From: Desulfobacteraceae bacterium 4484_190.2
GTDB taxonomy: Bacteria > Desulfobacterota > DSM-4660 > Desulfatiglandales > Desulfatiglandaceae
Assembly: GCA_002050025.1 (NCBI GenBank)
Contig: MVDB01000039.1
Span: 1-43,030, forward strand
Reading direction: 5' to 3'
Length of the DNA stretch: 43,030 nt
Shown here: positions 11,762 through 32,979 of the stretch, in pieces
Numbering within the stretch: the first letter of the stretch is position 1
How the letters are laid out: every line of letters starts with the position of its first letter
Translations under genes and position numbers: made by a program
The notes under the pieces: model-generated
Told to the model about the DNA's origin: nothing
What the model saw: the letters and a program-made list of their open reading frames with translations, nothing else
The model's database searches: none

Positions 11762-12949
11762 ATGAATCTTCTCAAGAATCTCACCGTGTTATCCCTTGAA
11801 CAGGCGACCGTTTTACCCTATTTGACTTACCGATTGGCCCACGACGGCATACAGGTCATAAGACTGGAGCATCCTGTATATGGGGACCCAAACCGGCTTA
11901 TTGGCGAAAATGTGCTTGGAGAAGAGCGGATGAATGCCTATTACCTGTGCATTAATTCAGGCAAAAAAGCACTGACGCTGAATCTTGGAGACCCGGAGGG
12001 CCAAAAAATCTTCCATTCTCTAATACAGGAGCTGAAAGTCGATATTTTTGCAACCAATCAGCTCCCCAGGAATTATCAAAAACTGGGGATTGATTATGAG
12101 TCCCTCAAGGCCCTTAAGCCGGATATTATATGGCTGGGTGTTACCGGTTTTGGTCCGGACAGCAATGAGGCGGCATACGATCCTATTTTGCAAGCAAGAT
12201 CAGGCCTGATGGACATGACCGGTGAAGCGGATGGAGATCCCCAGGTTTTGGGCATACCTCTTCCGGATATGGGTACCAGCGAGCATTCTTACGGGCTTTT
12301 GATGAAGGCCCTTTATAAACGTGAGGCCACAGGAGAGGGCTCCTGTATCAATATGTCCATGTTTGAGTCATCTGTATCATGGCTCACGGTGCCGATAACA
12401 CTTTCTACCCTACTAAACAAGAAAATCACCCGCAGGGGTAATACCCACGAATTTTTCTCTCCGGTTTCCGTTTATAAAACAAGTAATGGGTTTGTATATG
12501 TGGCTATGGGTAATGACAGACAATGGAAATCTTTGATTTCCACTGAAATGTTCAAATCCCTTGATAAACCCGAGTATGAGAAAAATGCAGGTCGGATAGG
12601 GAACGTGGAAAATTTGAACCGGTCCATCAATGAAATTACTAAAAGTCATACTTCCGAGGAATTGATCGACTTATTCAACTCGATCACTCTTCCCATAAGC
12701 AAGATAAAGACCATTCCCGAAGTGGTCGCCGATCCCCTTGTGGAACGTAGGTTGCTATTTGCCGAAGACGACAAGACCGGAACCAGAATCACCCTTCCCC
12801 CGCCTCCCAACACGACACCGCACTTAGAAGAATTAAATCGTAAACTCTCCTTTCCCCCACGCTTTGGGGAGCACAATGGCGAGGTTTATGGCCGGATAGG
12901 TTACACAGATGAGGAACTTAAGGAATTTAAGGAGAAAGGAATAATATGA
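11762..12949 (+). CDS. Family III CoA-transferase (CaiB/BaiF type)
   Basis: Typical N-terminus L.NLTVLSLEQATVLPY.T..LA..G..VI..E.P..GD and a length of 395 aa. RBS GGAGGAG is upstream. Confidence 0.85.
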   Translation: MNLLKNLTVLSLEQATVLPYLTYRLAHDGIQVIRLEHPVYGDPNRLIGENVLGEERMNAYYLCINSGKKALTLNLGDPEGQKIFHSLIQELKVDIFATNQLPRNYQKLGIDYESLKALKPDIIWLGVTGFGPDSNEAAYDPILQARSGLMDMTGEADGDPQVLGIPLPDMGTSEHSYGLLMKALYKREATGEGSCINMSMFESSVSWLTVPITLSTLLNKKITRRGNTHEFFSPVSVYKTSNGFVYVAMGNDRQWKSLISTEMFKSLDKPEYEKNAGRIGNVENLNRSINEITKSHTSEELIDLFNSITLPISKIKTIPEVVADPLVERRLLFAEDDKTGTRITLPPPPNTTPHLEELNRKLSFPPRFGEHNGEVYGRIGYTDEELKEFKEKGII

Positions 12950-12980
12950 ACGAGGTAGTTTCAAAATGTTCAATTTTATT

Positions 12981-13055
12981 CAAGATCAAGAAAGGCGAAA
13001 ATTTTAACCACAGAAATACATTGAGTATTTCGAGGATTAAAATTTGAGCCTGACG
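12981..13055. repeat. Family 2 short interspersed repeat, copy E1
   Basis: caagatcaagaaaggcgaaaattttaacca...acattgagtatttcgaggattaaaatttgagcctgacg matches 39334-39434 apart from an insertion in the latter. Confidence 0.6.
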
Positions 13056-13164
13056 AAGATATTGGGTAAAAGGGGACGTTTTGAAATTGGTTCGAACGTT
13101 TCAGGGTAGACGGACACTCCTCCTTATATGGAAAGCCGCAAATGCCAGAAACGGAGCAAACACA

Positions 13165-13956
13165 ATGAACATCATCGTTTTAATTAAACAGGTCCCTGAT
13201 ACAACAGATGTTAAATTGGATCCCAAAACGGGAAGCCTGATCAGGGAAGGCGTAGAAAGTATCATCAATCCCGATGATCGGCATGCTCTGGAGGCAGCCA
13301 TCAGTCTAAAGAAAGCCGAAGGCGGAAAGGTGACAGTCCTTTCCATGGGTCCTCCTCAGACAATTGATGCCCTGTCCGAGGCCATAGGCATGGGGGCCAA
13401 TGAAGCAATTCTTCTCTCAGATAGTGCTTTTGCCGGCGCTGATACATGGTCTACTTCGTTTACCCTGGGGAAAAGCATAGAAAAGATAGGTGGGTATGAT
13501 TTGATCTTTTGCGGTCGGCAGGCCATTGATGGAGACACCGCCCAGATAGGGCCCCAGGTGGCTGATTATTTACACGTGCCTCAGGTAACCTATGTCTTTG
13601 AGATTGAAAAAATCCAGAAAAAAAACATAATTGTCAAAAAGCGGCTTGAGGATGGCTACGAGCGTGTACAATGCAATCTTCCGGCCTTGCTGACAGTAAT
13701 TGGCGAACTGAATGTTCCTCGATACCCTATGGTTGGAAGACTAATAGATGCATGCAAAGAAAAGTCTCCAATCAAGATATGGAATGCGTCTGATATCGGT
13801 GTACAGGCAAAAGATGTAGGGCTGGAAGGGTCTTTTACTCAGGTAATTAAGACCTTCGCTCCCAAGTTCAAAAGGCAGGGAGAGATGCTGGAGGGTGATG
13901 CCAAAAAAATTGCCGGTACTTTGGTCGAAAAGCTCAAGGAAAATAAACTGATCTGA
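13165..13956 (+). CDS. etfB: Electron transfer flavoprotein beta subunit
   Basis: MNIIVLIKQVPDT...D..A.E.A...K is the canonical EtfB start. GGAG lies 8 nt upstream of the ATG at 13165. The longer 13081 start runs through repeat E1. Confidence 0.9.
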   Translation: MNIIVLIKQVPDTTDVKLDPKTGSLIREGVESIINPDDRHALEAAISLKKAEGGKVTVLSMGPPQTIDALSEAIGMGANEAILLSDSAFAGADTWSTSFTLGKSIEKIGGYDLIFCGRQAIDGDTAQIGPQVADYLHVPQVTYVFEIEKIQKKNIIVKKRLEDGYERVQCNLPALLTVIGELNVPRYPMVGRLIDACKEKSPIKIWNASDIGVQAKDVGLEGSFTQVIKTFAPKFKRQGEMLEGDAKKIAGTLVEKLKENKLI

Positions 13957-13988
13957 GAATACAAATTTCGGATTAAGGAGAAATGTAG

Positions 13989-15179
13989 ATGGCAGTCTGG
14001 GTTGAGATAGATTTATGTAATGGCTGCAAACGCTGTGTTAAAGTATGTCCTTACGGTGCCATGGAAATAAGAGATGGAAAGGCGCACGTCCTGGAGCACT
14101 GCACCTCCTGCGGAGCCTGTCTTGAGGTATGCAAAGAAAAAGCAATTCAGACGGACGTGGAACCAAGGGCCATTCCCGACTTCAACGACAGGAAAGGGGT
14201 CTGGGTCTTTGCTGAACAGAGAGGGGCCACGTTGAACAAGGTTTCCCTGGAACTCCTGGGTAAGGCCCGGGAACTGGCCGGAGAAATAGATCAAGACGTC
14301 TCTGCTTTGCTGCTAGGATACCAGGTGTCAGGGCTATGCGATACGATTATGGCGTATGGCGCAGACAAAGTGTACCTGGCAGAGCACAAAAACCTGAAAG
14401 AATACCGCACCAATGCCTACACAAATGTTGTGGAAGAATTGGTCAATAAATACAAACCAAATATCCTGCTCATGGGCGCAACCCATATAGGCCGTGACCT
14501 TGCTCCTCGTGTATCACGCAGGGTGGGAGTTGGGCTGACTGCGGATTGCACGGAATTAACAATTGACCCGGAGGAAGGGATTCTTCTTCAGACCAGGCCT
14601 GCTTTTGGCGGGAATGTCATGGCCACTATCGCCAACCGGTATTCACGTCCCCAGATGGCCACGGTCAGGCCCGGAGTTATGGAAGCCTTACCAAAGAGTA
14701 GGGGTAAGGGAAGTGTGATAAAACATAAGGTCTCCCTGACTGAAAAGGATATAGGCACAAAGATCCTGGAGGCAGTGAGGGAAAAGAGCAAGGGAGTCAG
14801 CCTGAGTGATGCCAAGGTAATCGTGGCCGGTGGAAGGGGTGTGGGTTCCCAGGAGGGGATGAAATCTCTTTTTTCACTCGCTAAAGTCATGGGAGGCGAA
14901 GTTGCTGGTACAAGGATAATTGTTGAAGAGGGATGGTTACCGGCTGACCGGCAGGTAGGGCAAACAGGCCAGACAGTAAGACCGGAAATATATATCGCGT
15001 GCGGTATTTCTGGTGCTATCCAGCATAGGGCCGGAATGCTTGGTTCGAGATATATCATTGCCATCAACAAAGACGGCCGAGCCCCTATCTTTCAAGTGGC
15101 TGACTGGGGCATTGTGGGTGACCTTCACGAAGCTGTTCCGGCATTTACAAAAGCACTTAAGGATAGCATGGGGAAATAG
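13989..15179 (+). CDS. etfA: Electron transfer flavoprotein alpha subunit with N-terminal 2x[4Fe-4S] ferredoxin domain
   Basis: CNGCKRCVKVCPYGA and CTSCGACLEVC precede a normal EtfA body (AGGRGVG...YIACGISGAIQH). Confidence 0.9.
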   Translation: MAVWVEIDLCNGCKRCVKVCPYGAMEIRDGKAHVLEHCTSCGACLEVCKEKAIQTDVEPRAIPDFNDRKGVWVFAEQRGATLNKVSLELLGKARELAGEIDQDVSALLLGYQVSGLCDTIMAYGADKVYLAEHKNLKEYRTNAYTNVVEELVNKYKPNILLMGATHIGRDLAPRVSRRVGVGLTADCTELTIDPEEGILLQTRPAFGGNVMATIANRYSRPQMATVRPGVMEALPKSRGKGSVIKHKVSLTEKDIGTKILEAVREKSKGVSLSDAKVIVAGGRGVGSQEGMKSLFSLAKVMGGEVAGTRIIVEEGWLPADRQVGQTGQTVRPEIYIACGISGAIQHRAGMLGSRYIIAINKDGRAPIFQVADWGIVGDLHEAVPAFTKALKDSMGK

Positions 15180-15188
15180 GGGGGTATA

Positions 15189-16322
15189 ATGCTGCGCTCA
15201 GACCCGGAAAAACTTATAAGAAAGGTCATGGCCCGATTTGTGGATGAGGAAGTGATCCCGGTAGCCAGGGAGATTGATGAGAAAGGGGAATTTCCATTTG
15301 ACCTGTTTAAAAAGATTGCTGATATGGGTGTCCTGGGGATTAGATACCCCAAAAAAGTCGGCGGTTCAGGCGGGAACACTACTCTTTACTGTATCGCCAT
15401 GGAGGAGTTGGCACGGGGGCTTTTGAGTTTGGCTGCTGTGACGGCCATGCAATGTCTAATGGCTACAAATGGCCTTTATCTCTATGGCACTAAAGAGATG
15501 CATGAAGAATATTTGCGGCCGGCTTTGAGAGGTGAAAAGATTGGAGCTTTTCAGCTTACTGAACCTGAGGCTGGATCTGATCTCAGTGCGGTAAGGACCC
15601 TGGCCACAAAGGCCAGTGACGGATATGTGATCAATGGAATGAAGACGTGGTCAACAAGTGGCCCATATGGCGATTTCCATACTGTCCTCTGCCAGACTGA
15701 CCCGGATAAGAAATTAAGAGGACTTATGTTTTTCTTTATCCCGACCGATACCCCGGGTTTCTCCCACAGCAAAAAATTTGAAACCCTGGGCACAAGAACA
15801 TCAGCTCTCTCAGAAATTTATTTCAATAATTGTCATGTACCTCCTGAATACATGCTGGGTGAGCTCGGCAGAGGGCTGGATGTGTTACTCACCATTCTGG
15901 CAGAAATCAGGATCATGACTGCCGCCCTGGCTTTGGGCCTCCATCGGGCTGCAATGGATGATTCTATAAAGTATTGTAAAGAAAGAGTGCAATTTGGTAA
16001 ACCGATTGGAAAGTACCAGCTTATTCAGGCAAAGATTGCCAACATGGCAGTGAACCTGGAGGCTGGTAGACTGATGGTCGACAAGGTTACCCACCAGATA
16101 GATAATAAGATTTCCTGCCTGAATGAAGCCTCTATGGGCAAGTACTTCACAGTTGAATCTGCATGTAGTGCAACAGATGAGGCCATGAGGATTTTCGGAG
16201 CCTATGGCTATTCCATGGAGTACAATGTCCAGAGATATTACAGGGACAATCGCTTTCTCCTATATGGTGGCGGGACTCATGAGGTATTACAGACTACTAT
16301 TGCAAGACAGTATCTTCGGTAG
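15189..16322 (+). CDS. Acyl-CoA dehydrogenase
   Basis: ACAD motifs: GAFQLTEPEAGSD, WSTSG, and C-terminal YRDNRFLLYGGGTHEV. Confidence 0.9.
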   Translation: MLRSDPEKLIRKVMARFVDEEVIPVAREIDEKGEFPFDLFKKIADMGVLGIRYPKKVGGSGGNTTLYCIAMEELARGLLSLAAVTAMQCLMATNGLYLYGTKEMHEEYLRPALRGEKIGAFQLTEPEAGSDLSAVRTLATKASDGYVINGMKTWSTSGPYGDFHTVLCQTDPDKKLRGLMFFFIPTDTPGFSHSKKFETLGTRTSALSEIYFNNCHVPPEYMLGELGRGLDVLLTILAEIRIMTAALALGLHRAAMDDSIKYCKERVQFGKPIGKYQLIQAKIANMAVNLEAGRLMVDKVTHQIDNKISCLNEASMGKYFTVESACSATDEAMRIFGAYGYSMEYNVQRYYRDNRFLLYGGGTHEVLQTTIARQYLR

Positions 16323-16527
16323 GATAAACTACCACCCTAAAAGGGACCAAACATGAAATATAATGAATTCGAATGACAAAGGTCAAAGCCCCCAGTGAAA
16401 TAGTTTACAGATTTCACGGGGCATGCAAATTTCAAATAAATGTCAAATTAAAAATGCTGAAAAATATATGTTCACCCATTAATTTAAACACGGCCTACAC
16501 TGGTTAAGGTGCACAATAGGAAAAAGA

Positions 16528-16628
16528 GTAAGTTCTCAATAAATTCAGGTTGTATTAAGAAAATCCCCCTCAATCCCCCTTTGCAAAAGGGGGAAGGTTC
16601 GGAATGCCCAGACTTATTGAGATGTTAA
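16528..16628. mobile_element. Family 1 MITE-like element, copy A (~100 bp)
   Basis: The TIRs are gtaagttctcaataa and the reverse complement of ttattgagatgttaa. There is a central hairpin ccccctttgcaaaaggggg. The copy is near-identical to 38940-39041 and to the arms of 32980-33212. Confidence 0.75.
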
Positions 16629-16720
16629 GAAAAAGATAAATAAATGATCGGGAGCCGGTTTGCTCGCTGTTTCAGCGGGGATAAGCGAAGCGAATTAACC
16701 TTTCAGGAGAGATGATAAAC

Positions 16721-17119
16721 ATGGGAAAGAGAAAAATAAGGGTCTTATTGGCCAAACCAGGACTGGATGGCCATGATAGAGGGGCAAAAGTTGTAGCCCA
16801 CGCCATGCGGGAGGCCGGTATGGAGGTGATTTATACCGGTCTTCACCAGAGCGTACCCAGCATTGTTAACCAGGCCATCCAGGAAGATGCTGACGTCATT
16901 GGTCTTTCCATAATGTCCGGAGCGCACATTCCAATTTGCAGGAAACTGATGGAGCTGGTGGAAGAGCAGAATATTGGTGACAAATTGATTGTTGTGGGTG
17001 GTGTTATTCCTAACAAAGACATACCTACCCTTAAAGATATTGGGGTCAAGGGGATCTTTCCTGGAGGAGTTCACTTTGATGAGATCGTAAAGTTCATAGG
17101 GGAAAATGCAACAAAATAG
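16721..17119 (+). CDS. B12-binding small subunit of an acyl-CoA mutase
   Basis: KIRVLLAKPGLDGHDRGAKVVA carries the DxHxxG cobalamin-binding motif, and the protein is ~130 aa. Confidence 0.85.
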   Translation: MGKRKIRVLLAKPGLDGHDRGAKVVAHAMREAGMEVIYTGLHQSVPSIVNQAIQEDADVIGLSIMSGAHIPICRKLMELVEEQNIGDKLIVVGGVIPNKDIPTLKDIGVKGIFPGGVHFDEIVKFIGENATK

Positions 17120-17219
17120 TCCGTGACCATCCACCCATATTCTGAACTTTTAGGCACGCAGCTGATTGACCCTTTTATGGAACCACAGTTAAATCACATA
17201 GAAAGAAAATGAGGAAATC

Positions 17220-18848
17220 ATGGGAGTAGCTACATATATCAAAGATGAAAAAGATGCCATTAAAGAAGTCACACTTCAGTCAGGCATAAAAATCAAGCCG
17301 GTCTATACACCCGATGATCTTGAACAGATCGGCTTTGATTACCAGGAGGACCTTGCGAATCCAGGCGATTTTCCTTTTACCCGTGGTATTCACCCCATGG
17401 GTTTTAGGAGTCGAAACTGGACAACCCGCCAGTACACAGGGTTTGGTACGCCGGAGGAGACAAACGAACGATTCAAGCTAATGATCTCCCATGGGCAAAC
17501 GGGGCTTAATGTTGCATTCGATCTCCCCACGCAGATGGGCCTTGATTCTGATGACCCCATGGCTGAAGGCGAAGTGGGTCGCGTGGGTATGGCCATTGAT
17601 TCCTTGAAGGATTTTGAGATCGCGTTCAAGGATATCCAATTGAACCGTATCGGGAGCGGTCTGACAATTAACGCAGTGGCCTCGATCATGCTGGCCATGT
17701 ATCAGGCAATGGCTGAGAAATTCGGGTACAAAAAGGATGAGATCTCAGCCACTCCTCAGAACGATATCCTCAAGGAGATGGTTGGCAGGGGAGCATGGAT
17801 CTATCCTGTGGAACCAGCAGTGCGGCTTATCGGTGACACTATAGAGTATTCAATGAAGGAACTACCAAGATGCAATCCGGTTTCTGTGGCGGGGTACCAT
17901 ATCAGAGAATCCGGTTGTACGCCGGCACAAGAAATTTCCTATGCCTTAATGATTGCCTTTGCTTATATCGATAACGTGGTCGCCCGTGGATACAAGGCAG
18001 AAGATTTTGTAGGCAGGTTTTCTTTTAATCTGAATATTTATGGTAACATCTGGGAGACGGTGGCAAAATTTCGGGCGGCAAGGAAATTATGGGCAAAGTT
18101 ATTGAGAGAACGATATGATGTTCAGAATAAGAAATCGCTTTTCCTCCGCGGCATATTCGGCGGTGGCGGCTCAGGTATGACCAAACAGCAGCCGGAAAAT
18201 AATATCGTGCGTGGGGCATACTATGCACTTGCAGCGGCCCTATCCGGAGCCCAGACAACAGCACTTTGTTCTTTTGACGAGGCATATACGATTCCCACAG
18301 AGCGAGCAGCACTCCTTTCCTTAAGGACTTTTCAAATACTCATGGATGAAATAGGGCTCAGGGATACAGTGGATCCCCTGGCCGGCTCATACTTTATAGA
18401 AACATTAACCAAAGAAATGGAAGCAAAGATCCTGGAAGAGATGGAAAAGATAGAGAAGGTCGGTGGCATGGTTGAGGCTGTTTCGACCGGGTATGTGCAG
18501 AAAGAGGTGGCATTGCAGGCCTACGAGTTTGAGAAAAAAATCCAGGAAGGTAAAGTCATAAAAGTCGGCGTAAACAAGTACACAGAAGGTGTGGACATGG
18601 AGGTGGAACTCCACGAATACAACGAGGAGTGGGCACGGTTACAGATTAAACGACTTAAGGAACTCAAAAAAGATAGGGACAATAAGGCGGTCAAAGATTC
18701 CTTAAAAGCACTTGAAAAGGCGGCCAGAGAAGAGAAAAACGTTATGCCCTACCTGCTTGAGTGCTGCAAAAGTTATGCAACGGTAGGTGAAATGTCGAAT
18801 GTTTTCAGAGATGTTTTTGGGGAGTTTGTGGAACCGAGTATTTTTTAG
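17220..18848 (+). CDS. Methylmalonyl-CoA-mutase-family large (catalytic) subunit
   Basis: FPFTRGIHP...WTTRQYTGFGT...GQTGLNVAFDLPTQMG.DSD...ND ILKE are family signatures. The protein is 542 aa. Confidence 0.9.
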   Translation: MGVATYIKDEKDAIKEVTLQSGIKIKPVYTPDDLEQIGFDYQEDLANPGDFPFTRGIHPMGFRSRNWTTRQYTGFGTPEETNERFKLMISHGQTGLNVAFDLPTQMGLDSDDPMAEGEVGRVGMAIDSLKDFEIAFKDIQLNRIGSGLTINAVASIMLAMYQAMAEKFGYKKDEISATPQNDILKEMVGRGAWIYPVEPAVRLIGDTIEYSMKELPRCNPVSVAGYHIRESGCTPAQEISYALMIAFAYIDNVVARGYKAEDFVGRFSFNLNIYGNIWETVAKFRAARKLWAKLLRERYDVQNKKSLFLRGIFGGGGSGMTKQQPENNIVRGAYYALAAALSGAQTTALCSFDEAYTIPTERAALLSLRTFQILMDEIGLRDTVDPLAGSYFIETLTKEMEAKILEEMEKIEKVGGMVEAVSTGYVQKEVALQAYEFEKKIQEGKVIKVGVNKYTEGVDMEVELHEYNEEWARLQIKRLKELKKDRDNKAVKDSLKALEKAAREEKNVMPYLLECCKSYATVGEMSNVFRDVFGEFVEPSIF

Positions 18849-18936
18849 GCACTTAAATTTATGAGAGGGGAGGTGAAAAGAGAGGTTATCGTGATAAGGG
18901 GTTAACAAATCATCCACAATTAAGGAGGGTAGAGAA

Positions 18937-19962
18937 ATGAGAAAAAAAATTGGATTTGTACTGTCCGGACTTTTTTTGGCAACACTTTTCACCATTACCT
19001 GGACTCCAGCACCAGTTGCTGCAGGGCCCATCAATCTGAATTATGCTAACTTTCCCCCCGCCCCCACATTCCCCTGTGTTCAGATGGAGAGGTGGAAAAA
19101 AGAGGTTGAAAAGCGTACCAATGGGAAGGTAGCTATTAAGACGTTCCCGGGAGGGACCCTGCTTAAGGCCAAGGCTATGATGGATGGAGTGATTGCCGGC
19201 CAAGCTGATATAGGTTGCCTGTGCATGGCATACCAGCCGGGCAGGTTTGTCATTACAAATGCCACTACCTTGCCGCTTAATCCGCCAAGTGCAACGGTTT
19301 CAAGCCTTGTTCTATGGGATCTTTATAAAAAATATCACCCTAAGGCTTTTGGAAAAGTAAAGGTTCTTACGATGTTCACCACGGCACCCTTTAATATTAT
19401 GAGCAAAGTCCCGGTAAGAAATCTTGGTGACCTAAAAGGATTGGATCTTCGAGCTCCCGGAAGTGCCGGGGTGGTGCTAAAGAACCTGGGTGGCAATCCC
19501 GTCGGAATGCCGATGCCCCAAACACCGGAAGCACTTCAAAAAGGAACCGTCAAAGGACTGATTTCTTCCTTAGAAGTCATGAAAGATTTCAAATTTGCCG
19601 AGTTATGCCGTTATGTGACCAAGATCGACGTTGGTGTTATCCCCTTTGCTGTTGTCATGAATATGGACAAATGGAACAGCCTGCCAAAGGATGTCCAGAA
19701 AGTAATGGAGGAGTTAGGTCCGCAACAGGCAGTGTGGACAGGTGTCTACATGGATAATCATGTGAAAGACTCCATGGCATGGTCGAAAAAAACCCATAAC
19801 ATTGAGGTAATCGAACTTTCAAAAACAGAAAAGGCCAAATGGGATAAACTGCTTGATCCTATTACGGGAAAGTGGATTACGGATGCTAAAGCCAAAGGTT
19901 TTCCGGCTAAAGCGGTTGTTGATGATATTGTCGGATTTACAAAAATGTATTCCGGCCAGTAA
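18937..19962 (+). CDS. dctP: TRAP transporter substrate-binding protein (DctP family)
   Basis: Signal peptide MRKKIGFVLSGLFLATLF...A, the typical length, and the following DctQ/DctM genes. RBS AAGGAGG. Confidence 0.85.
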   Translation: MRKKIGFVLSGLFLATLFTITWTPAPVAAGPINLNYANFPPAPTFPCVQMERWKKEVEKRTNGKVAIKTFPGGTLLKAKAMMDGVIAGQADIGCLCMAYQPGRFVITNATTLPLNPPSATVSSLVLWDLYKKYHPKAFGKVKVLTMFTTAPFNIMSKVPVRNLGDLKGLDLRAPGSAGVVLKNLGGNPVGMPMPQTPEALQKGTVKGLISSLEVMKDFKFAELCRYVTKIDVGVIPFAVVMNMDKWNSLPKDVQKVMEELGPQQAVWTGVYMDNHVKDSMAWSKKTHNIEVIELSKTEKAKWDKLLDPITGKWITDAKAKGFPAKAVVDDIVGFTKMYSGQ

Positions 19963-19967
19963 CGGAG

Positions 19968-20013
19968 AGGTGGTTGCATTTAAGAGGGTATGTGCCTTTA
20001 TGTGCAGCCACCT
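19968..20013 (+). other. Intercistronic stem-loop between dctP and dctQ
   Basis: aggtggttgca (19968-19978) pairs with tgcagccacct (20003-20013): 11 bp including one G-U. There is no T-run, so it is not a classic terminator. Confidence 0.35.
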
Positions 20014-20117
20014 AAAAACATTTAATCATGTTTATAAGCGGATACTTATTAAGGATTAAAGCCGTCATGAGTTATGCAGGCTTAGCTTTTATGTTTTGAT
20101 TAAGACTGGAGAAGCAG

Positions 20118-20609
20118 ATGGCGTTCCTGGAAAGTTTTTGTAAGTTTATCAATCAGTTCTTCATGTGGATAGCAGGTTTTTTTTTATCGGCAATGATTGT
20201 TTTGACTTGCGCGAATATTTTTTTCCGACTTATATGGGGACCGATCAGAGGGACTTATGAACTGATGGGCTATTTTGGAGCTATTGTAACGGCTCTTGCT
20301 CTGGGCTATACCCAAATCAAGAAAGGGCATATCTCTGTTGATATACTGGTGCTTCGGTTCTCAGCGAAAACCCAAAGGGTACTTCAAAGTATAAATAGCC
20401 TAATCTGTATGATTTTTTTCGGCATGGCGGCATTGCAAATCGCCAAATATGCAAACATCCTTCAGGAGACAGGCGAAGTTACTGAGACACTTCTAATTAT
20501 TTACTACCCTTTTACTTATGGAGCCGCCTTGGGGTGTGCCGCGCTCTCCCTGGTTTTTTTTACAGAACTCTTAAATGCCCTTTTTAAAACAGGTGAGGAA
20601 GAACAGTGA
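20118..20609 (+). CDS. dctQ: TRAP transporter small permease (DctQ family)
   Basis: 163 aa with four predicted TM helices, positioned between the DctP and DctM genes. Confidence 0.8.
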   Translation: MAFLESFCKFINQFFMWIAGFFLSAMIVLTCANIFFRLIWGPIRGTYELMGYFGAIVTALALGYTQIKKGHISVDILVLRFSAKTQRVLQSINSLICMIFFGMAALQIAKYANILQETGEVTETLLIIYYPFTYGAALGCAALSLVFFTELLNALFKTGEEEQ

Positions 20610-23362: not shown

Positions 23363-23373
23363 GGGGTTCAGAT

Positions 23374-24243
23374 ATGATTGACTATGATTATAAAAAGCCT
23401 GAGAATTTGGAAGAGGTCTTCAGCCTTCTCAAAGAATACGGCCCCAAGGCCACCCTGATTGCAGGGGGTACCGATGTGATGGTCAAAATCAGGAATACGA
23501 GAAAGGCTCCAGAGGTTTTGATATCTCTAAGGGGACTTGAGGATCTTAGATATATCAGGAAAAACAACGATTACCATATTGGAGCCCTGACCACTCACAG
23601 GATGCTGGAGCAGTCAGATCTGGTCAAAACCGAGCTGTCTGCCTTACATGATGGCGCCTCTGAGGTTGGATCGGTTCAGATAAGGAACGTTGCAACGGTT
23701 GGAGGGAATATCTGTAACGCTGCGCCTTCAGCAGACACTTCCGGCCCGCTTCTGGCGCTTGACGCCACCGTCGTACTGGAGGGACCTGAGGGAAGACGCA
23801 GCCTACCCATAGCTGACTTCTTTACCGGGACTTACAGGACCGTGCGAAAGGCAGAAGAGGTCCTTGTTGAGTTCCAAATACCAGTGGAAATGGAAGGCTT
23901 TGGAAGCGCCTACTGGAAACATTCAAGGAGGAAGGCAATGGAGCTCCCTTTATTGGGAATTTCCGTTGCTCTCAAGCTGTCTGAGAACAAAGAGATATCT
24001 GATGCAAGAATTTCCCTGACCGTGGCCGCGCCAACACCCATCAGGGCTTATAAGGCCGAGGAGTTTTTAAAAGGGAAGCCCTTAGACGATGATGTGCTGA
24101 GAGAGACAGGGAAAATCGCATCATCCCGAGACTGTTGCTCTCTCAGGGACAGCCTGAGGTGTGCAGCATGGTATCGCGAAAAAATCATACAGGTCTTTGT
24201 CCCCCGAATGGCCAGGTTAGCTGCTGAACGCATTAAAAATTAA
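23374..24243 (+). CDS. Mo-hydroxylase (xanthine dehydrogenase family) FAD-binding medium subunit
   Basis: LIAGGTDVMVKIR...VATVGGNICNAAPSADT are CoxM/XdhB-like FAD-binding motifs. Confidence 0.85.
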   Translation: MIDYDYKKPENLEEVFSLLKEYGPKATLIAGGTDVMVKIRNTRKAPEVLISLRGLEDLRYIRKNNDYHIGALTTHRMLEQSDLVKTELSALHDGASEVGSVQIRNVATVGGNICNAAPSADTSGPLLALDATVVLEGPEGRRSLPIADFFTGTYRTVRKAEEVLVEFQIPVEMEGFGSAYWKHSRRKAMELPLLGISVALKLSENKEISDARISLTVAAPTPIRAYKAEEFLKGKPLDDDVLRETGKIASSRDCCSLRDSLRCAAWYREKIIQVFVPRMARLAAERIKN

Positions 24244-24247
24244 TAAT

Positions 24248-24348
24248 AGTTCACCGCTGAGACGCTGAGTCCGCAGGGAAAAAAGTGATTTAACTTAGCG
24301 TTCTTTGCACCTAAAGAGAGCGAAGCGAACGGGCGGTGAATGGTTACC
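24248..24348. repeat. Family F palindromic repeat, long form
   Basis: The left end agttcaccgc and the right end gcggtgaatggttacc are mutually inverted. The ends match 6569-6605 and 24865-25073. Confidence 0.45.
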
Positions 24349-24376
24349 AGAAATCATTAGTACTAAGGAGCTCGAG

Positions 24377-24856
24377 ATGAAAAAAGTGCCAGTTTCTTTT
24401 ACCTTAAATGGTGACCCCGTAACAGCAGAGGTTCCGATTACGTGGTCACTTTTAGAGACATTACGGGAATATTTTGAATTAAACGGTGCTAAAAAAGGGT
24501 GCGGGGTCGGTGAGTGTGGCGCGTGCACAGTTATTGTAGACGGCGACGCAGTTAGTTCATGTTTGTATCCAATTCCCGAAATAGAAGGAAAATCAGTGAC
24601 CACAATCGAGGGTATTGCCAGTGCTGAAGGAGCGTTGCATCCACTCCAAAAGGCATTTATTGAAAACAACGGAGTCCAGTGTGGATATTGCACATCTGGA
24701 ATGATCATGTCTGCAAAATCCCTTCTGGATCAAAACCCTGATCCAACGGAAGACGAAATCAGAACAAGCATTGCTGGCAATTTTTGTCGTTGCACCGGAT
24801 ACATTCAGATTGTCGAGGCCATAGGGATGGCCGCGATAGAAAGCGATAGAAAATAA
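24377..24856 (+). CDS. Mo-hydroxylase [2Fe-2S] small subunit
   Basis: GCGVGECGACTV and CGYCTSGM...CRCTGY cluster motifs. AAGGAG lies 6 nt upstream of the ATG at 24377. The longer ORF start lies in repeat F. Confidence 0.9.
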   Translation: MKKVPVSFTLNGDPVTAEVPITWSLLETLREYFELNGAKKGCGVGECGACTVIVDGDAVSSCLYPIPEIEGKSVTTIEGIASAEGALHPLQKAFIENNGVQCGYCTSGMIMSAKSLLDQNPDPTEDEIRTSIAGNFCRCTGYIQIVEAIGMAAIESDRK

Positions 24857-24864
24857 TTTTGTAC

Positions 24865-25073
24865 TAGTTCACCTGTTAAAAAAACCTTTAGACGGGATTA
24901 CCCCGCGTTTCGCGTGGCAGGCATGGATAAACAAGATTTTTTGTCCTGTTCATCTTTAATCATAAGCGTGTGTTAAAACAATACATATTCTACTTTTGAT
25001 TTACAGGATAAAATTAATCTCCCGCTGTAAGCGGGATTAATCCTGTCAGAAAAATATGCGGCTGAACTATTAC
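24865..25073. repeat. Composite repeat: family F ends (24865-24875, 25058-25073) enclosing a family X MITE (24888-25054), which itself contains a TCCCGC-N5-GCGGGA hairpin (25020-25036)
   Basis: tagttcacctg ... gcggctgaactattac match the family F ends. tttagacgggatta and the reverse complement of attaatcctgtcagaaaaa match the X TIRs. The hairpin is flanked by a direct TTAATC/TTAATC. Confidence 0.5.
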
Positions 25074-25107
25074 ATAATTTTTAACTAAGTAAACCCTAAC
25101 GGAGGAA

Positions 25108-27244
25108 GTGATGTCTGAGTATCTGTATGTGGGAAAGAGCATTCCAAGAACCATAGAAACTGACAAAGTAACAGGCAGGGCAATCTATATCGATGATCTC
25201 AAACGCCCGGGAATGCTCTATGGAAAAATACTTTACAGCAAATATGCCCACGCAAAAATCAAAAACATTGATAAGTCCAAAGCAGAAAAGCTTCCCGGCG
25301 TGAGAGCGATCCTAACCGGATACGATATCCCTGATGTGAGGGTTGGATTCATAAAAGATCAAACAGTACTGAAAAAAGATTTGGTTCGTCAGTTTCGAGA
25401 TGAGGTAGCCTCCGTTGCAGCCATCAGTCCCGAAATAGCAGAGGAAGCGCTTGATTTAATTAAGGTAGAGTATGAGGAGCCTGTATGATCAGACTAACGT
25501 TATTCATTTGGGCAAGCAGCGAATTATGGAATATTTCGCCCAGATCGGCCTTAAGGACAAAAAGGTGAGGGTTGTGAATGCAATCGTTGGCGGTAGCTTC
25601 GGGACCAAACTGGATACGGATATCTATGAGTTCATATGCATTCAGCTCGCCTTAAAGACAAGAAAACCGGTAAAGATCTTATTTTCAAGGGAAGAAGAGT
25701 TCTTTGCTCTTCCGCCAAGACAACCCGCCCTCTTTGACATAGAGCAGGGATGTAACAAAGAAGGCAGGCTTACCTTCAGGAAATGTGAGGCCCTTCTGGA
25801 TAATGGGGCCTACACATCCTGGGGTGCCACAACCCCGTCAGTTATGATGATGCCCATGTCGTCACTTTATCGGGTGCCTAATGTGTCTTTTGAGGCGACC
25901 TGCGTTTATACCAATAATATCTACTGCCAGGCCATGAGGGGTTACGGTAACCCCCAGGCAAGTTTCGCTGTGGAGACTTCAATGGATACACTGGCCGAAA
26001 AGGCCGGTATTGACCCCGCAGAATTCAGACTGATAAACCGGAATCAGCCTGGGGATGAAACGCCTCAGAGGTTAAAAATAACCTCCTGTGGCATGGAAGA
26101 ATGTATCAATTCAGTTAAAGAAAAACTCGACTGGGACAAGAAGAAAAAAGATAAAAAAAAGGCCAGAGGCGTTGGCATGGCATCCCTTATTCATGTCGCA
26201 GGTGGCGCAAGGGTATATATGTCTGACGGTCATGGGATTATGATTAAGGTGGATCAGAACGGGTGTGTGGATGTGTTCGAGAGTGGAACGGATCAGGGCC
26301 AGGGTTCTCCCACGGTGATTTCACAGATAGTTGCAGAGGCACTGGGGTTTAAACCAGAGAATGTCTCTTTGACTATGGGTGATACCGGATTGAGTTTATG
26401 GGATGCAGGGACACATGCGAGCCGTCATACCTTTATGGCAGGCAATGCGGCAATCAGGTGTTGCAAAAAGGTCAAGAAACAGATCCTGGATATGGCTGTC
26501 GAATACATGCCCAAATTGATCAAGGGCGGTTTTAAGAGGAAAAAGAGAAAGGATCCCGATTTTGTAGAACCGGATCTTGACTACGGCCTGATTTCTGATC
26601 CCGAAAACTTAGACATAAAAGAGAGGATGGTCTTTCCCAGAAGTGACCCTGATCATCCTTATTTCAAGATGGATGTGCGTGAGATTGTGAGAAGCGGGCT
26701 CCATGTGGGGGTGGGTGACAGCAGGGTTGTGGTCGCCGAGGAGTTCTATGATCCACCCACAGAGATGCTGGATAGAGAAATGAAAGGAAATCTGTCCATG
26801 ACTTATGCCTTTGGCACCACAGGCGTTGAAGTTGAAGTGGATGAAGAAACAGGAGAGATAACGATCCTTAAGCTTATCGCCGCCCACGATGTGGGAAAGG
26901 CAATGAACCCGACCCTTTTATTAGGCCAGGTCTATGGCGCAGTCTATACGGGCGTGGGTTACGGCCTCACGGAAGAGATAAAAGTGGTTAATGGGAGAGT
27001 TATGAATCCCAACTTCCGCGACTACAAGATGCTTACTGCCAAGGATGTTATCCCTATTACGCCCGTCGTGATTGAACCGGTGGATAAGGATGGACCTTAT
27101 GGGGCCAAAGGAATTGGTGAACCAGGACTTGTTCCTACCGCACCTGCCATTGCCAATGCTATCTATGATGCCATTGGTGTCAGGATCACGGATCTGCCCA
27201 TCACTCCGGAGAAGATCCTGACAGCACTCAATGATAAGCAGTAG
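25108..27244 (+). pseudogene. Mo-hydroxylase molybdopterin-binding large subunit, disrupted (two ORFs in different frames, internal segment missing)
   Basis: ORF 25108-25488 is the a/b-hammerhead domain and ends ...IKVEYEEPV*. ORF 25472-27244 is in the +1 frame and resumes at ...QTNVIHLGKQ...KVRVVNAIVGGSFGTK. The second frame is closed by TAG at 25466-25468, so the two ORFs can only join within 25469-25488. Confidence 0.75.
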
Positions 27245-27261
27245 GGAGTAGGGAGGTATAT

Positions 27262-29349
27262 ATGTCTGATGGCATGTTTTATCGGTTGGGGTGTGACATT
27301 GGTGGCACCTTTACTGACTTTGTCCTTTTAAATGACCGGACAGGGGAAATACGAATTAACAAGTGTCTGACCACTCCAGGCGATCCTTCGGACGCTGTGG
27401 AGCAAGGCATAGAAGAATTGGAACAGGTAACCCCGGGGTTTGTGGGAAAGCTGGATGAGGTGATCCATGGTACCACATTGGTTATCAATTCGATCATAGA
27501 GCGAAAGGGAGCGAAAACCGGGCTCATTACAACTAAAGGCTTCAGGGATGTTTTGGAGCTCGGAAGAGAAATACGCTATGCCCCGTATGATGTTTTTGCT
27601 GAATTTCCCAAGCCCCTGATATCAAGGAGGTTTCGATTAGAAGTTGATGAGAGGATTCGGAGTGATGGAACAATATTGAGGACTCTGGATCGCGAAGAAG
27701 CGCGACTGGTAGTAAACAGATTGATCGATATGGGAGTTGAGTCAATTGCGGTCTGCCTTCTCAACTCTTTCGAGAATCCGGCCCACGAATTGGTGATCAA
27801 AGAAATTATTAGCGCTCAGGCCCCTGACATTCCAGTCTCAATTTCTTATGAAGTTCTTCCGCAGATCAGAGAATACGAAAGAACCAGCACCACCGTGACA
27901 AATGCCTATGTCAAGCCTTTAACAAGCAGGTATTTATCTAAATTGTCTCAAAAGCTGGAAGCCATTGGTTCGAAGGGAAAGTTATTTATTATGCTTTCCA
28001 GTGGTGGCATCACATCCGTTGAAACAGCCGCTGAGTTTCCGGTACGGATAATTGAGTCCGGGCCAACAGCCGCAGTTATCTCAGGCCAGTACTATGGAAA
28101 ACTATTTGATATCCCGGAAATGTTCTGTTTTGACATGGGAGGAACCACTGCAAAGTCTTGCCTGATTCAGAGAGGAGTTGCCGGTGTGGTCCCTACCTTT
28201 GAGGTAGGTCGCGTTCAAAGATTCATGAAAGGCAGTGGACTTACTATCCAGGTGCCCGTGGTTGACCTGATGGAGATTGGCGCCGGAGGCGGGAGCATTG
28301 CCAAGGTCAGCAAAATGGGAACACTCCAGGTTGGACCGGAGAGTTCAGGAGCCGATCCCGGCCCCATATGTTATGCCAGGGGTGGAACTGAGCCAGGTGT
28401 GACGGATGCTGATCTGTTGTTGGGTTATCTGGATGAGGGCTATTTCCTTGGCGGAGAAATGAAGCTTGATAAGGAGGCTGCCCGGCGTGGTATTGAGGAA
28501 AAGATCGCAAAGCCTCTTGGTGTGTCTTTCGTACAGGCCATATGGGGTATTCATGACCTTATTAACGAAACCATGGCCGCAGCGGCAAAGACACATATAG
28601 CAGAAAAGGGCGGAAATCCCAGGGTGGCAACTGTGGTGGCATTTGGTGGTGCAGGCCCGGTGCACGCCTATGGTCTGGCCAAAAAATTGGGTTCACCCAG
28701 GTTAATCGTTCCGCCTAATGCAGGTGTCGGTTCAGCACTTGGGTTTTTCACTGCTCCCAGGGCGTTTGATCTTGTAAGAAGTCATAAGGTTGCTCTTGAT
28801 ACGGCCGATTTTAGTGAAATCGAAGGAATATTTAAGGTTATGGAGGTTGAAGGGGCCAGGACTTTACAGAAATCAGGAACAGCCGACGATATTATATTTG
28901 AGAGATCAGTTGATGCCAGGTTTGTGGGGCAGGGATCTGAAACCAATATTCCTGTTCTTGAAGGCAATTTTACTGATGTGAAAAAGGAGGATATGCGCAG
29001 GCGCTTTGACGAAATATATGAGAAGCTTTACGGAAGAACCTATCCCGATTCTCCTGTGGAATTTATCAACTTCAAGGTTAGGGCCAGCCTCCCTGAAAGG
29101 CTGTTACAATTGCCTAAGATGGAAAAAAGGGCTGGTTCGTTAAAAGATGCCATAAAGGGAGAGCGTCAAGCATACTCGGGGATTGCAAAGGATTTTATCC
29201 CTTATACGATCTACGACAGGTACAAGTTGTATCCGGACTCAAAATTTCAAGGCCCTGCAATCATTGAAGAGAGAGAATCCACTGTTGTTATTGGCGAAGA
29301 CGCTTCAATCTCTGTTGACGACTTTGGATTCCTGTGGATTGATCTATAA
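27262..29349 (+). CDS. hyuA: Hydantoinase/oxoprolinase family A subunit (HyuA-like, ATP-dependent)
   Basis: N-terminal GCDIGGTFTDFV and internal FDMGGTTAK sugar-kinase-fold motifs, and 695 aa. Confidence 0.9.
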   Translation: MSDGMFYRLGCDIGGTFTDFVLLNDRTGEIRINKCLTTPGDPSDAVEQGIEELEQVTPGFVGKLDEVIHGTTLVINSIIERKGAKTGLITTKGFRDVLELGREIRYAPYDVFAEFPKPLISRRFRLEVDERIRSDGTILRTLDREEARLVVNRLIDMGVESIAVCLLNSFENPAHELVIKEIISAQAPDIPVSISYEVLPQIREYERTSTTVTNAYVKPLTSRYLSKLSQKLEAIGSKGKLFIMLSSGGITSVETAAEFPVRIIESGPTAAVISGQYYGKLFDIPEMFCFDMGGTTAKSCLIQRGVAGVVPTFEVGRVQRFMKGSGLTIQVPVVDLMEIGAGGGSIAKVSKMGTLQVGPESSGADPGPICYARGGTEPGVTDADLLLGYLDEGYFLGGEMKLDKEAARRGIEEKIAKPLGVSFVQAIWGIHDLINETMAAAAKTHIAEKGGNPRVATVVAFGGAGPVHAYGLAKKLGSPRLIVPPNAGVGSALGFFTAPRAFDLVRSHKVALDTADFSEIEGIFKVMEVEGARTLQKSGTADDIIFERSVDARFVGQGSETNIPVLEGNFTDVKKEDMRRRFDEIYEKLYGRTYPDSPVEFINFKVRASLPERLLQLPKMEKRAGSLKDAIKGERQAYSGIAKDFIPYTIYDRYKLYPDSKFQGPAIIEERESTVVIGEDASISVDDFGFLWIDL

Positions 29350-29416
29350 AATTGCTACGCAATTTTATATAGCGCGGCTTCGCCGCTTTATAAAAACGAA
29401 TGTATTACACAATCAA

Positions 29417-29442
29417 GTTAATCCTGGAAATCCTGTCTAAAA
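29417..29442. repeat. Solo end of a family X element
   Basis: The reverse complement of gttaatcctggaaatcctgtctaaaa is ttttagacaggatttccaggattaac, which matches the X TIR. It lies between hyuA and hyuB, just before the hyuB RBS. Confidence 0.45.
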
Positions 29443-29457
29443 TAAGGAGGAACAGAA

Positions 29458-31182
29458 ATGGGGCAAGAATTTGATCCCATAACCTTGGAGATACTCTGGC
29501 GCAGGTTAATATCAGTCGTGGATGAGGCGGACGGTGCGGTTGCGCGTACGGCCTTTTCAAGCCTGCTTAGAGATGCGCACGACTATACCTGTATGTTCAC
29601 AGACAAAAAGGGTCGAGAACTGGCCCAGGGGTCATTTGCAACGCCAGGTCAATCCGGGGCCATGGCACTGGGAATCAAAAATCTCGTTAACAAACGCTCA
29701 TTAGATGAATACAAGCCAGGCGATGTTTTCATAACCAATGATCCATGGGCCCTTGCCGGGCACCTGAATGACATATGTGTGATTAGTCCCATTTTTTACA
29801 AAGACAGAGTTACAGCGTTTACTGCGTGTGTTTTCCATCATTCTGATATAGGTGGGAGGGTATCTTCTGATAACCACGATGTCTTCGAGGATGGGTTGTT
29901 CATACCTATGGTGAAACTCTATGATGGCGGGGTTCTAAATGAGGCCGTTATGGAAATGATCCGGTGGAACGTAAGAACGCCGGATGAGGTCACCGGTGAC
30001 ATACGGTCCCAGATAGCTGCGAATCATGTGTGTGAAGAAAAAATTATCCAGATGCTTGATGAATATAAGATGGACGGACTGGATGATCTGGCAGACGAGA
30101 TCATCAACCGCACTGAGAACAGCATGAGAGAGGCCATACAAAAAGTCCCTGATGGCATTTATAAGGCGGAAGGGATTGTGGAGCAGATGGAGGGTAAGGG
30201 CGATGTGGTCATAAAGGCATCCATCCAAGTGCATGGAAGTGACATAACGGTAGACCTTGATGGATCTTCTCCCCAGGTAGACTGGGGGGGGAACGTGGTC
30301 TATAATTTCACCTATGCCTATGTGTTTATGGCAATGAAGAGCATGTTTGACCCGGAAATACCCAACAATGACGGTTGCACAATTCCGATAGCCATGAAGG
30401 CACCAGAAGGAAGCGTTGTTCACTGTAAGTTCCCTGCTGCCGTTGCTGCCCGCATGCAGATAGGGCATTTTCTTACCGAGATCATTTACAGGGCAATGGC
30501 CGGAGCTCTGCCCGACAGGGTTATTGCGGGAAGTGGTGGGACACCGGCAACCATGAATGTATTTTACGGCAGGAGAAACAATGGTAGCCCGTGGCATTCG
30601 GTGATTATCAGGGGTGGTGGTATGGGGGCAAGCGCCACGAATGATGGTTACTATGACTTCATATTCCCTGCCAATGGCGCCAACACGCCGGTGGAGATAT
30701 TTGAGAGCGATACGCCACTTTTGGTAGAAAAGAGAGAGATTATTACGGATTCAGGTGGTGCCGGCAAAATGAAAGGAGGGCTGGGTAGAAGGGTTATATT
30801 CAGGGCTCCTGACGATGAATATGCGCCTCTGCCGCCTGTGAATCTGGGGATTCAGTCGGGAAGGTACCGTTATCCTCCAGAAGGGTTATTTGGTGGCAAG
30901 GATGGTTTAAAGGCACAGTTCCTTATCAACGGGAAGCCCGGAAATTCATATGGGCTTACGCAATTCGGGCCAGGCGATAAGGTTATTATTGACGTGGCAG
31001 GTGGCGGCGGATACGGAAATCCTTTTGAGCGTGATGTGGAATTAGTGGAAAGTGACGTGGCCGATGGTTATGTCAGTGTGGAAAAGGCCAAAGAAGATTA
31101 CGGAGTCGTGATTGACCCGGAAACCATGAAAACAGAACCGGAAGAAACAGCAAAATTTCGCGAGGCCTTGAAGAGGGCGTGA
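29458..31182 (+). CDS. hyuB: Hydantoinase B/oxoprolinase family subunit (HyuB-like)
   Basis: DPITLEILWRRL..V..E....L.RTAFS...RD..D..C.. is a typical HyuB N-terminus. RBS AAGGAGG. Confidence 0.9.
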   Translation: MGQEFDPITLEILWRRLISVVDEADGAVARTAFSSLLRDAHDYTCMFTDKKGRELAQGSFATPGQSGAMALGIKNLVNKRSLDEYKPGDVFITNDPWALAGHLNDICVISPIFYKDRVTAFTACVFHHSDIGGRVSSDNHDVFEDGLFIPMVKLYDGGVLNEAVMEMIRWNVRTPDEVTGDIRSQIAANHVCEEKIIQMLDEYKMDGLDDLADEIINRTENSMREAIQKVPDGIYKAEGIVEQMEGKGDVVIKASIQVHGSDITVDLDGSSPQVDWGGNVVYNFTYAYVFMAMKSMFDPEIPNNDGCTIPIAMKAPEGSVVHCKFPAAVAARMQIGHFLTEIIYRAMAGALPDRVIAGSGGTPATMNVFYGRRNNGSPWHSVIIRGGGMGASATNDGYYDFIFPANGANTPVEIFESDTPLLVEKREIITDSGGAGKMKGGLGRRVIFRAPDDEYAPLPPVNLGIQSGRYRYPPEGLFGGKDGLKAQFLINGKPGNSYGLTQFGPGDKVIIDVAGGGGYGNPFERDVELVESDVADGYVSVEKAKEDYGVVIDPETMKTEPEETAKFREALKRA

Positions 31183-32634: not shown

Positions 32635-32635
32635 G

Positions 32636-32941: not shown

Positions 32942-32979
32942 GGCTTGAGTACCTCCTTGTAAGCATACGATCTTTATTT

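Follow-up and report, generated by a model that had tools for sequence, protein, structure and literature searches.

The window analysed here is a stretch of 43,030 nucleotides (contig MVDB01000039.1) from the metagenome-assembled genome (MAG) of Desulfobacteraceae bacterium 4484_190.2. Between positions 11762 and 31182 it carries a block of 15 gene families, all on the + strand, which very probably represents, in a degraded copy, the version of the iaa operon found in the Desulfatiglandaceae, whose products would break down indole-3-acetate without oxygen. This identity, which a first-pass annotation of the DNA had put forward, is supported by the GGG motif and the clade of an IaaF-type dehydrogenase, by residues kept in a B12-dependent mutase, by the kinship of a transporter binding protein and by the conservation of the operon, which in one relative is accompanied by a beta-oxidation module. 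The open reading frame (ORF) listing and Pfam scans recovered the gene families in the order first listed by that annotation, and they also confirmed that the large subunit of the electron-transfer flavoprotein (ETF) has a ferredoxin domain. The annotation had further listed three subunits of a molybdenum (Mo) hydroxylase. The FAD and [2Fe-2S] subunits are indeed full length, but the Mo-binding subunit is not encoded by a single intact gene, having been split by a deletion. Genes for a hydratase, a dehydrogenase, a thiolase and a regulator had been said to lie outside the window, and this was right.

Marker residues of the pathway enzymes

In the acyl-CoA dehydrogenase encoded at 15189-16322 (+), the segment RFLLYGGGTHE, which contains the diagnostic LLYGGGTHE, aligns with ITEIYEGTSE of Bcd, so that GGG stands in the place of the catalytic YEG. 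This replacement is the signature of IaaF and is present in all members of the subclass, all of which are encoded in iaa-type operons (PMC8360864). The GGG was kept in 80 of 80 cluster orthologues. A tree of representatives was built by a quick maximum-likelihood search, with support given by the Shimodaira-Hasegawa-like approximate likelihood-ratio test (SH-aLRT) only. In this tree the protein falls in a clade with an SH-aLRT value of 99, which includes two proteins that JGI names benzylmalonyl-CoA dehydrogenase and which is separate from the dehydrogenases of the YEG and GEG types. Homologue searches with the IaaF of the window and with a representative 47% identical to it returned relatives from metagenomes, and the second of these searches gave both of the JGI benzylmalonyl-CoA dehydrogenase names. 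A tblastn search against plasmids yielded nothing above 41% identity; the best match, on a Massilia plasmid, belongs to an unrelated cluster of the fatty-acid type. We annotate the gene as a putative IaaF-type decarboxylating (2-aminobenzyl)malonyl-CoA dehydrogenase.

The B12-dependent mutase is predicted to be IaaGH-like and to interconvert arylsuccinyl-CoA and benzylmalonyl-CoA. Its small, B12-binding subunit (16712-17119, +; PF02310, TIGR00640) has an intact DxHxxG motif, DGHDRG at residue 19. The large, catalytic subunit (17220-18848, +; PF01642, 2.6e-181) retains the carboxylate-binding Tyr (RQYTGF) and Arg (RGAWIYP) of methylmalonyl-CoA mutase, positions at which 2-hydroxyisobutyryl-CoA mutase has Ile and Gln. 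Since both residues are kept, a substituted succinyl-CoA would fit as the substrate.

The remaining enzymes were examined in the same way. The first gene of the block encodes a family III CoA-transferase (11762-12949, +; PF02515, 2.1e-75), an IaaL-like protein and candidate (2-aminophenyl)succinyl-CoA transferase, with the catalytic-Asp motif DPILQARSGLM at residue 140. Its best solved relative is succinate-hydroxymethylglutarate CoA-transferase, at 174 bits, and it scores under the cut-off of every NCBIfam equivalog. The PaaK-family arylacetate-CoA ligase (22067-23362, +; PF14535, PF00501), which is IaaB-like, has an intact P-loop (SSGTTG) and scores 410 bits with TIGR02155 (PaaK), for which the cut-off is 646; a separate PaaK-like paralogue, 40% identical to it, is encoded elsewhere in the MAG. 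Both ATP-site motifs are intact in the A-type subunit of the hydantoinase/oxoprolinase (HyuA; 27262-29349, +; PF01968, PF05378, PF19278), DIGGTFTD at residue 12 and DMGGT at residue 291. Together with the B-type subunit (HyuB; 29458-31182, +; PF02538, 2.5e-148) it would constitute an IaaC/E-like, ATP-dependent lactam hydrolase; the scores with the caprolactamase equivalogs are 528 for CapA and 254 for CapB against a cut-off of 1000 in each case. Of the Mo hydroxylase, the FAD subunit lies at 23374-24243 (+; PF00941/PF03450) and the [2Fe-2S] subunit in an ORF at 24305-24856 (+; PF01799/PF00111). Orthologues of the latter align from about residue 21-27 of this ORF, which places its likely start near 24377. 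No enzyme of the block reaches an NCBIfam equivalog cut-off, and this includes the equivalogs for other substrates (PaaK, caprolactamase, methylmalonyl-CoA mutase and 4-hydroxybenzoyl-CoA reductase).

The transporter and its probable substrate

Between the mutase and the ligase are the genes of a tripartite ATP-independent periplasmic (TRAP) transporter: the solute-binding protein DctP (18937-19962, +; PF03480) and the membrane subunits DctQ (20118-20609, +; PF04290) and DctM (20606-21910, +; PF06808), both of which are collinear in relatives. The best solved relatives of DctP are Desal_3247 (4n6d), with 55% identity, and Dde_0634 (4nap), with 45%. A structural comparison with Dde_0634, made with a model of mean predicted local distance difference test score (pLDDT) 87, gave a Z score of 41.0 and a root-mean-square deviation of 1.6 Å over 305 residues. 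The crystal entries of Dde_0634 (4nap, 4pgn, 4pgp) presumably contain different indolic ligands bound to the protein. The next relatives, the TarP proteins that bind aromatic acids, are only 22-26% identical to DctP. Two papers cite Dde_0634 as an indoleacetate-binding protein (PMC9973260, PMC9543091). The alignment and the model support the assignment of DctP as a putative binding protein of the indoleacetate type, and the kinship provides evidence on the substrate that is independent of the pathway enzymes.

Conservation of the operon in relatives

The source MAG comprises 2.37 Mb in 232 contigs and is 63% complete, and its named relatives are MAGs of the Desulfatiglandaceae and Desulfatiglandales. 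It carries dsrA, with a score above the curated cut-off, and a weaker dsr-like match, presumably dsrB, adjoins this gene. NrdD/NrdG are encoded at the end of the window. The host had been described in the first-pass annotation as a sulfate-reducer-type anaerobe, and these data agree with that description.

When 30 relatives were searched at the DNA level, nearly every one proved to have the block, and it is collinear in other genera of the Desulfatiglandaceae. In G006, G007 and G017, which represent three other genera, all 15 genes occur in identical order with 56-89% protein identity; HyuB keeps its place in other genera, with 80-81% identity. In nearly all relatives the block begins with the CoA-transferase gene, and the genes that flank the block are mostly unrelated between the genomes that possess it. 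A core order, transferase-EtfB-EtfA-dehydrogenase-(GntR)-mutase small-mutase large, is kept in about 80 named species-level genomes; downstream of this core, the same genomes have either the TRAP-ligase-Mo hydroxylase arrangement or hydantoinase-ligase. When related loci were sought with a profile made from the IaaF alignment, the best 80 of 569 matching stretches all came from Desulfatiglandales or Desulfobacterales MAGs. IaaF orthologues with at least 63% identity were present in 108 of the 201 sampled genomes of the order, in 46 of 93 when only high-quality genomes were counted, and in 49 of 88 genera. Their presence in about half of the sampled genomes suggests that the turnover of tryptophan-derived indoleacetate without oxygen is routine in these sediment bacteria.

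In G017 (OY762721.1, a complete MAG chromosome), four co-directional genes directly follow that for HyuB (L021:3379-10119). They encode a fusion of 3-hydroxyacyl-CoA dehydrogenase and enoyl-CoA hydratase (HADH/ECH), a thiolase partner of the DUF35/ChsH2 type, a thiolase of the SCP-x type and a flavoprotein resembling old yellow enzyme (OYE) and 2,4-dienoyl-CoA reductase. To judge from their sequences, these genes, or at least the first three of them, are a beta-oxidation module that would lead from 2-aminocinnamoyl-CoA to 2-aminobenzoyl-CoA. Orthologues of them were not found in the recovered part of the 63%-complete MAG that contains the window.

A proposed route for indoleacetate

The steps proposed here are drawn from the characterised enzymes of Aromatoleum together with the sequence tests described above. 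In Aromatoleum, IaaB is a ligase, IaaCE a hydantoinase-like hydrolase of the 2-oxo intermediate, IaaL a phenylsuccinyl-CoA transferase, IaaGH a mutase and IaaF a decarboxylating benzylmalonyl-CoA dehydrogenase; IaaM is a binding protein, and IaaQ and IaaR are regulators. In the current scheme CoA ligation by IaaB comes first, and the main role of IaaL is to transfer CoA within the molecule. The first-pass annotation had instead opened the pathway with hydroxylation of the free acid and had given IaaL the role of an activating transferase of the succinyl-CoA type, and on both points it has to be revised.

In the operon described here, the acid would be taken up by the TRAP transporter with its binding protein of the Dde_0634 type and converted to indoleacetyl-CoA by the PaaK-type ligase. 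The three-subunit Mo hydroxylase would then introduce the 2-oxo group, and the ATP-dependent, hydantoinase-like HyuAB would open the resulting lactam to yield (2-aminophenyl)succinyl-CoA. Following an intramolecular shift of CoA to the other carboxyl group by the family III transferase, the B12 mutase would form (2-aminobenzyl)malonyl-CoA. This would be oxidised and decarboxylated to 2-aminocinnamoyl-CoA by the IaaF-type dehydrogenase, with the electrons passing to the ferredoxin-domain EtfAB of the operon. Finally, beta-oxidation would produce 2-aminobenzoyl-CoA through the products of genes located elsewhere, which in G017 are those directly downstream. In the present MAG the hydroxylation step is probably blocked, unless the deletion in the Mo gene is an artefact of assembly or belongs to a minor variant, a matter to which we return below.

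The electron-transfer flavoprotein of the operon

The large ETF subunit, EtfA (13989-15179, +), has an N-terminal ferredoxin domain with two [4Fe-4S] clusters. It matches CarE (6fah_A) over its full length, residues 1-395, with the ferredoxin domain included, at 416 bits, compared with 162 for human ETF-alpha and 135 for the Geobacter-type 5OW0; after CarE, its best matches are the ETFs of Bcd-Etf, EtfABCX, LctC and A. fermentans. The small subunit, EtfB, occupies an ORF at 13081-13956 (+) with a probable true start at 13165, as suggested by alignments with solved structures, and it scores 283 bits with CarD (6fah_B) against 77 with human ETF-beta and 52 with 5OW0. Among solved structures the dehydrogenase scores highest with Bcd, at 284 bits, and it reaches 252 bits with CarC.

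Residues associated with bifurcation were then compared. The two CxxCxxCxxxC motifs and the RPAFGG of EtfA are conserved in 70 of 70 orthologues; the arginine of RPxFGG in the large subunit adjoins the bifurcating FAD (PMC10734219). A small residue at position 123 of EtfB (A. fermentans numbering) leaves room for the second FAD, and glycine is invariant there in bifurcating ETFs while canonical ETFs have a bulky residue (PMC12630350). Here AIDGDTAQIGP aligns to residues 120-130 of 4kpu_B, so that Gly123 is present, as it is in all 51 orthologues that could be scored. The RxGV motif appears as REGV, and as R[EQK]G[IVL] in orthologues. The hinge motif GxxSPTxV departs from this pattern: the sequence is GSFTQV here and S[LFNM]TxV in orthologues, and the proline is replaced throughout the clade. 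Variants of the corresponding Pro239 in T. maritima retained partial bifurcation activity (PMC10734219). Because this one motif failed, we have left the ETF unassigned to group 2.

The electron acceptor of IaaF under anaerobic conditions has been described as unknown, with the remark that confurcation would need a bifurcation-competent ETF, and the ETF of the iaa operons of strict anaerobes has been called "non-bifurcating" (PMC8360864). Judged by alignment, the ETF of the present operon most resembles the bifurcating CarDE and Bcd-Etf, contrary to that label. We entertain, as a tentative proposal to which we give somewhat less than even weight, that IaaF and the ferredoxin-domain EtfAB form a complex like CarCDE and Bcd-EtfAB, in which confurcation would combine the electrons of the substrate with those of reduced ferredoxin to yield 2 NADH. 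The oxidative, confurcating direction is expected since the GGG dehydrogenase is expected to decarboxylate its substrate. By a rough estimate, which is inference only, the substrate couple after decarboxylation would lie near -150 mV, a value too high for the direct reduction of NAD+ and compatible with confurcation involving reduced ferredoxin. If true, this proposal would answer the question, raised in 2021, of what re-oxidises IaaF without oxygen, and would overturn the "non-bifurcating" label. The hallmarks of a bifurcating-type ETF make it a testable candidate for the electron acceptor of IaaF in the intact operons of relatives.

Probable damage in this copy of the operon

The Mo-binding large subunit (25108-27244, +) is divided between an ORF at 25108-25488 and a second one at 25472-27244, which overlaps the first and lies in another frame. 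Set against the Pfam and NCBIfam profiles, the two together lack about 95 positions, located after the hammerhead domain and before the first Mo-cofactor domain. Four congeneric loci (L017-L020), a JGI metagenome contig (L110) and three other genera have 253 extra bp at 25477/25478, and in all of them the gene reads through without interruption for about 800 codons. As 253 equals 3 x 84 + 1, 84 codons have been lost and the frame has been shifted. A collapse of repeats is unlikely as the cause, because the boundaries of the deletion share only 1-2 bases of microhomology. A search of the recovered 63% of the MAG for another Mo subunit turned up none above 34% identity. The possibility that the whole cluster is duplicated in the MAG was considered and rejected for this recovered part, in which the paralogues are at most 53% identical and no gene of the block has a close second copy.

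In most relatives a GntR/FCD regulator gene, encoding about 235 amino acids, lies between the genes for the dehydrogenase and the mutase. At this site the present copy has a non-coding spacer of 389 nt (16323-16711), composed of a dispersed repeat; a blastn search with the spacer gave 189 hits, spread over many contigs of the MAG. Within the window the repeat is found also at 10427-10486, 32980-33211 and 38940-39040, and it has a core of about 100 nt with the hairpin CCCCCTTTGCAAAAGGGGG. It probably explains as well the breaks in the assemblies of congeners around the dehydrogenase gene. An AT-rich spacer at 24857-25107, immediately upstream of the Mo-binding subunit, likewise derives from dispersed repeats. 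It contains about 235 extra bases in comparison with the 20-55 bp found here in congeners, and segments of it are present on 13 further contigs of the MAG; two small hairpins and pieces of other dispersed repeats can be recognised in it. An Rfam scan detected no RNA family in the window, and promoter and terminator scans of the window were at or below shuffled expectation.

Given the deletion and frameshift in the Mo gene, and with the GntR gene replaced by a repeat, the pathway is probably blocked at hydroxylation in this MAG. If the deletion is real, the damage to the Mo gene and the absence of the regulator suggest that individual lineages are shedding the trait.

Alternative interpretations

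It is unlikely, although the idea carries appreciable weight, that the operon is in fact intact and functional and that the 253-bp gap and the change of frame are artefacts of metagenome assembly or binning, due either to a minor deletion variant or to a mis-join. The MAG is fragmented and incomplete, as noted above, and the 14 other genes are full length with their motifs intact, as this explanation would have it. The junction created by the deletion is also in its favour, since a search for it among public metagenome contigs gave no other instance. This negative result says little, because a control search found only two contigs with the intact allele of the genus in the collection. It is harder to reconcile an artefact with a break that does not occur at a repeat and that shows next to no microhomology, and the same contig exhibits two further structural changes relative to congeners, the loss of the regulator and the insertion of the spacer, with which real decay of the operon fits.

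The nature of the block itself may also be questioned. Each of its families is by itself common among anaerobic aromatic degraders, and the genes flanking the block vary between genomes, so one might suppose an accidental neighbourhood of catabolic modules (TRAP and ligase, Mo hydroxylase, hydantoinase, mutase, acyl-CoA dehydrogenase and ETF) that share no common pathway. We give this almost no credence. The block travels as a unit, its 15 genes standing together in unchanged order in different genera and among unrelated flanks, and the core order is retained in some 80 species-level genomes; the arrangement is thus far beyond chance co-occurrence, the point that the first-pass annotation had wanted decided by a comparison of synteny. 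An improbable but more serious alternative is that the substrate is a related indolic or aryl acid (an acid derived from indole-3-pyruvate or indole-3-lactate, a substituted indoleacetate or another N-heteroaryl-acetate) degraded by the same chemistry. The substrate of every sulfate-reducer copy is a prediction from the genes, the enzymes lie under all equivalog cut-offs, the type of transporter may differ from that of the IaaM binding protein of Aromatoleum, and Dde_0634 has been crystallised in several entries. Nevertheless, the chain of enzymes fits indoleacetate exactly, as the opened lactam of a hetero-ring arylacetate must give a substituted succinate, which is what the transferase, the mutase and the GGG dehydrogenase need. 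Moreover, the nearest characterised relative of DctP is the one cited as a binder of indoleacetate. Several points do weigh against the identification of the block as a degraded iaa operon. The failure of every enzyme to pass an NCBIfam equivalog cut-off is one, although the library seems to be without Iaa models, and the likeness to the Aromatoleum Iaa proteins is drawn from published descriptions of them. The use of the operon by sulfate reducers is a prediction, and the substrate is one that we infer from the genes. With respect to the degraded state of the copy, the deletion, whose junction the search found in no other assembly, may be a variant private to this MAG or a mistake in its assembly, and as the MAG is 63% complete, the beta-oxidation genes or a second Mo subunit may exist unassembled. 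With these points considered, we still regard a degraded iaa operon for indoleacetate as highly probable.

Other features of the window and the MAG

Several observations were made outside the operon. At 31228-33157 (-) there is a convergent pair of genes, one for a pyridine-nucleotide-disulfide oxidoreductase with a sarcosine-oxidase A3 domain and the other for a Fer2_4 protein. The pair is probably unrelated to the operon because it is not conserved beside the operon in relatives. Elsewhere in the MAG (G000 contig C161:2157-9006), a distant second hydantoinase A/B pair, 32-37% identical to that of the window, adjoins a DctM gene and may belong to another ATP-dependent pathway for a lactam or a ketone.

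A single ORF of 573 amino acids at 2045-3766 (-) combines the domains of an AbiEi antitoxin and an AbiEii nucleotidyltransferase toxin, and may represent a type IV toxin-antitoxin or abortive-infection pair whose two members have been fused. The 250-amino-acid protein encoded at 7632-8384 (+), in what is the MAG of a sulfate reducer, strongly matches (4e-31) the cyanobacterial fluorescence recovery protein domain PF18032. A direct repeat of 71 nt, with 77% identity between its copies, is present at 3862-3932 and 8434-8504. The second copy spans the start of a gene for a NifS-like cysteine desulfurase, and for this reason the first looks like the relic of a duplicated 5' end. Finally, at 39638-39717 in an intergenic region, a 40-nt unit occurs twice in tandem, with 98% identity between the copies.

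Comparison with known systems

The individual components of the operon may be compared with several characterised proteins. Caprolactamase CapAB of Pseudomonas jessenii and kindred ATP-dependent lactam hydrolases share with HyuAB the two-subunit architecture and both ATP-site motifs. HyuAB differs in falling far below the CapA and CapB equivalog cut-offs, and its context suggests that the lactam would be a 2-oxindole. Dde_0634 of Oleidesulfovibrio alaskensis G20 (4NAP and the other entries; Vetting 2015) superposes nearly completely on DctP at the identity of 45% given above. The caffeyl-CoA reductase-Etf complex CarCDE from Acetobacterium woodii (6FAH) and the Bcd-EtfAB complex from Clostridioides difficile (5OL2) provide the best solved matches for EtfA, EtfB and the dehydrogenase; the present system differs from both in having GGG and not YEG in the dehydrogenase and in the replacement of the hinge proline of EtfB.

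The iaa cluster (iaaA-M, P-R) of Aromatoleum aromaticum EbN1 and A. evansii KB740 (Ebenau-Jehle 2012; Schühle 2016, 2021), the enzyme sets being compared by description, shares with the present operon a ligase of the PaaK type, a hydantoinase-like lactam hydrolase, a family III CoA-transferase, a two-subunit B12 mutase, a decarboxylating dehydrogenase of the GGG type and a periplasmic binding protein for uptake. Unlike these organisms, the present host is strictly anaerobic and carries dsrA. The present operon has its own ferredoxin-domain EtfAB, whereas A. aromaticum has one canonical ETF, which is unreactive with IaaF. Where Aromatoleum has iaaQ/iaaR, the relatives of the present copy carry a GntR/FCD regulator, and the beta-oxidation genes lie outside the present block.

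The closest comparison is with operons predicted in other strict anaerobes. The first-pass annotation had regarded the occurrence of the cluster in a sulfate reducer, with a dedicated ETF, as an extension of the pathway, but this had already been published. Operons of the iaa type that include a dedicated ETF have been predicted in Desulfatiglans anilini, strain NaphS2, Desulfocarbo indianensis and Ferroglobus placidus (Schühle et al. 2016, 2021; PMC8360864, which cites the 2016 work). The window is a further example of these already predicted operons, for which the pathway, its spread and the linked ETF are in print, and as an iaa operon it adds little to what has been published on the pathway. 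The hosts of the predicted operons are likewise strict anaerobes, one of them from the same family, and their operons likewise combine an iaaF orthologue with an ETF. The ETFs predicted for sulfate-reducer iaa operons have been called non-bifurcating (PMC8360864), in contrast to the ETF described here, which keeps most of the group-2 markers. The present copy is further set apart from those operons by its broken Mo gene and by the loss of its regulator.

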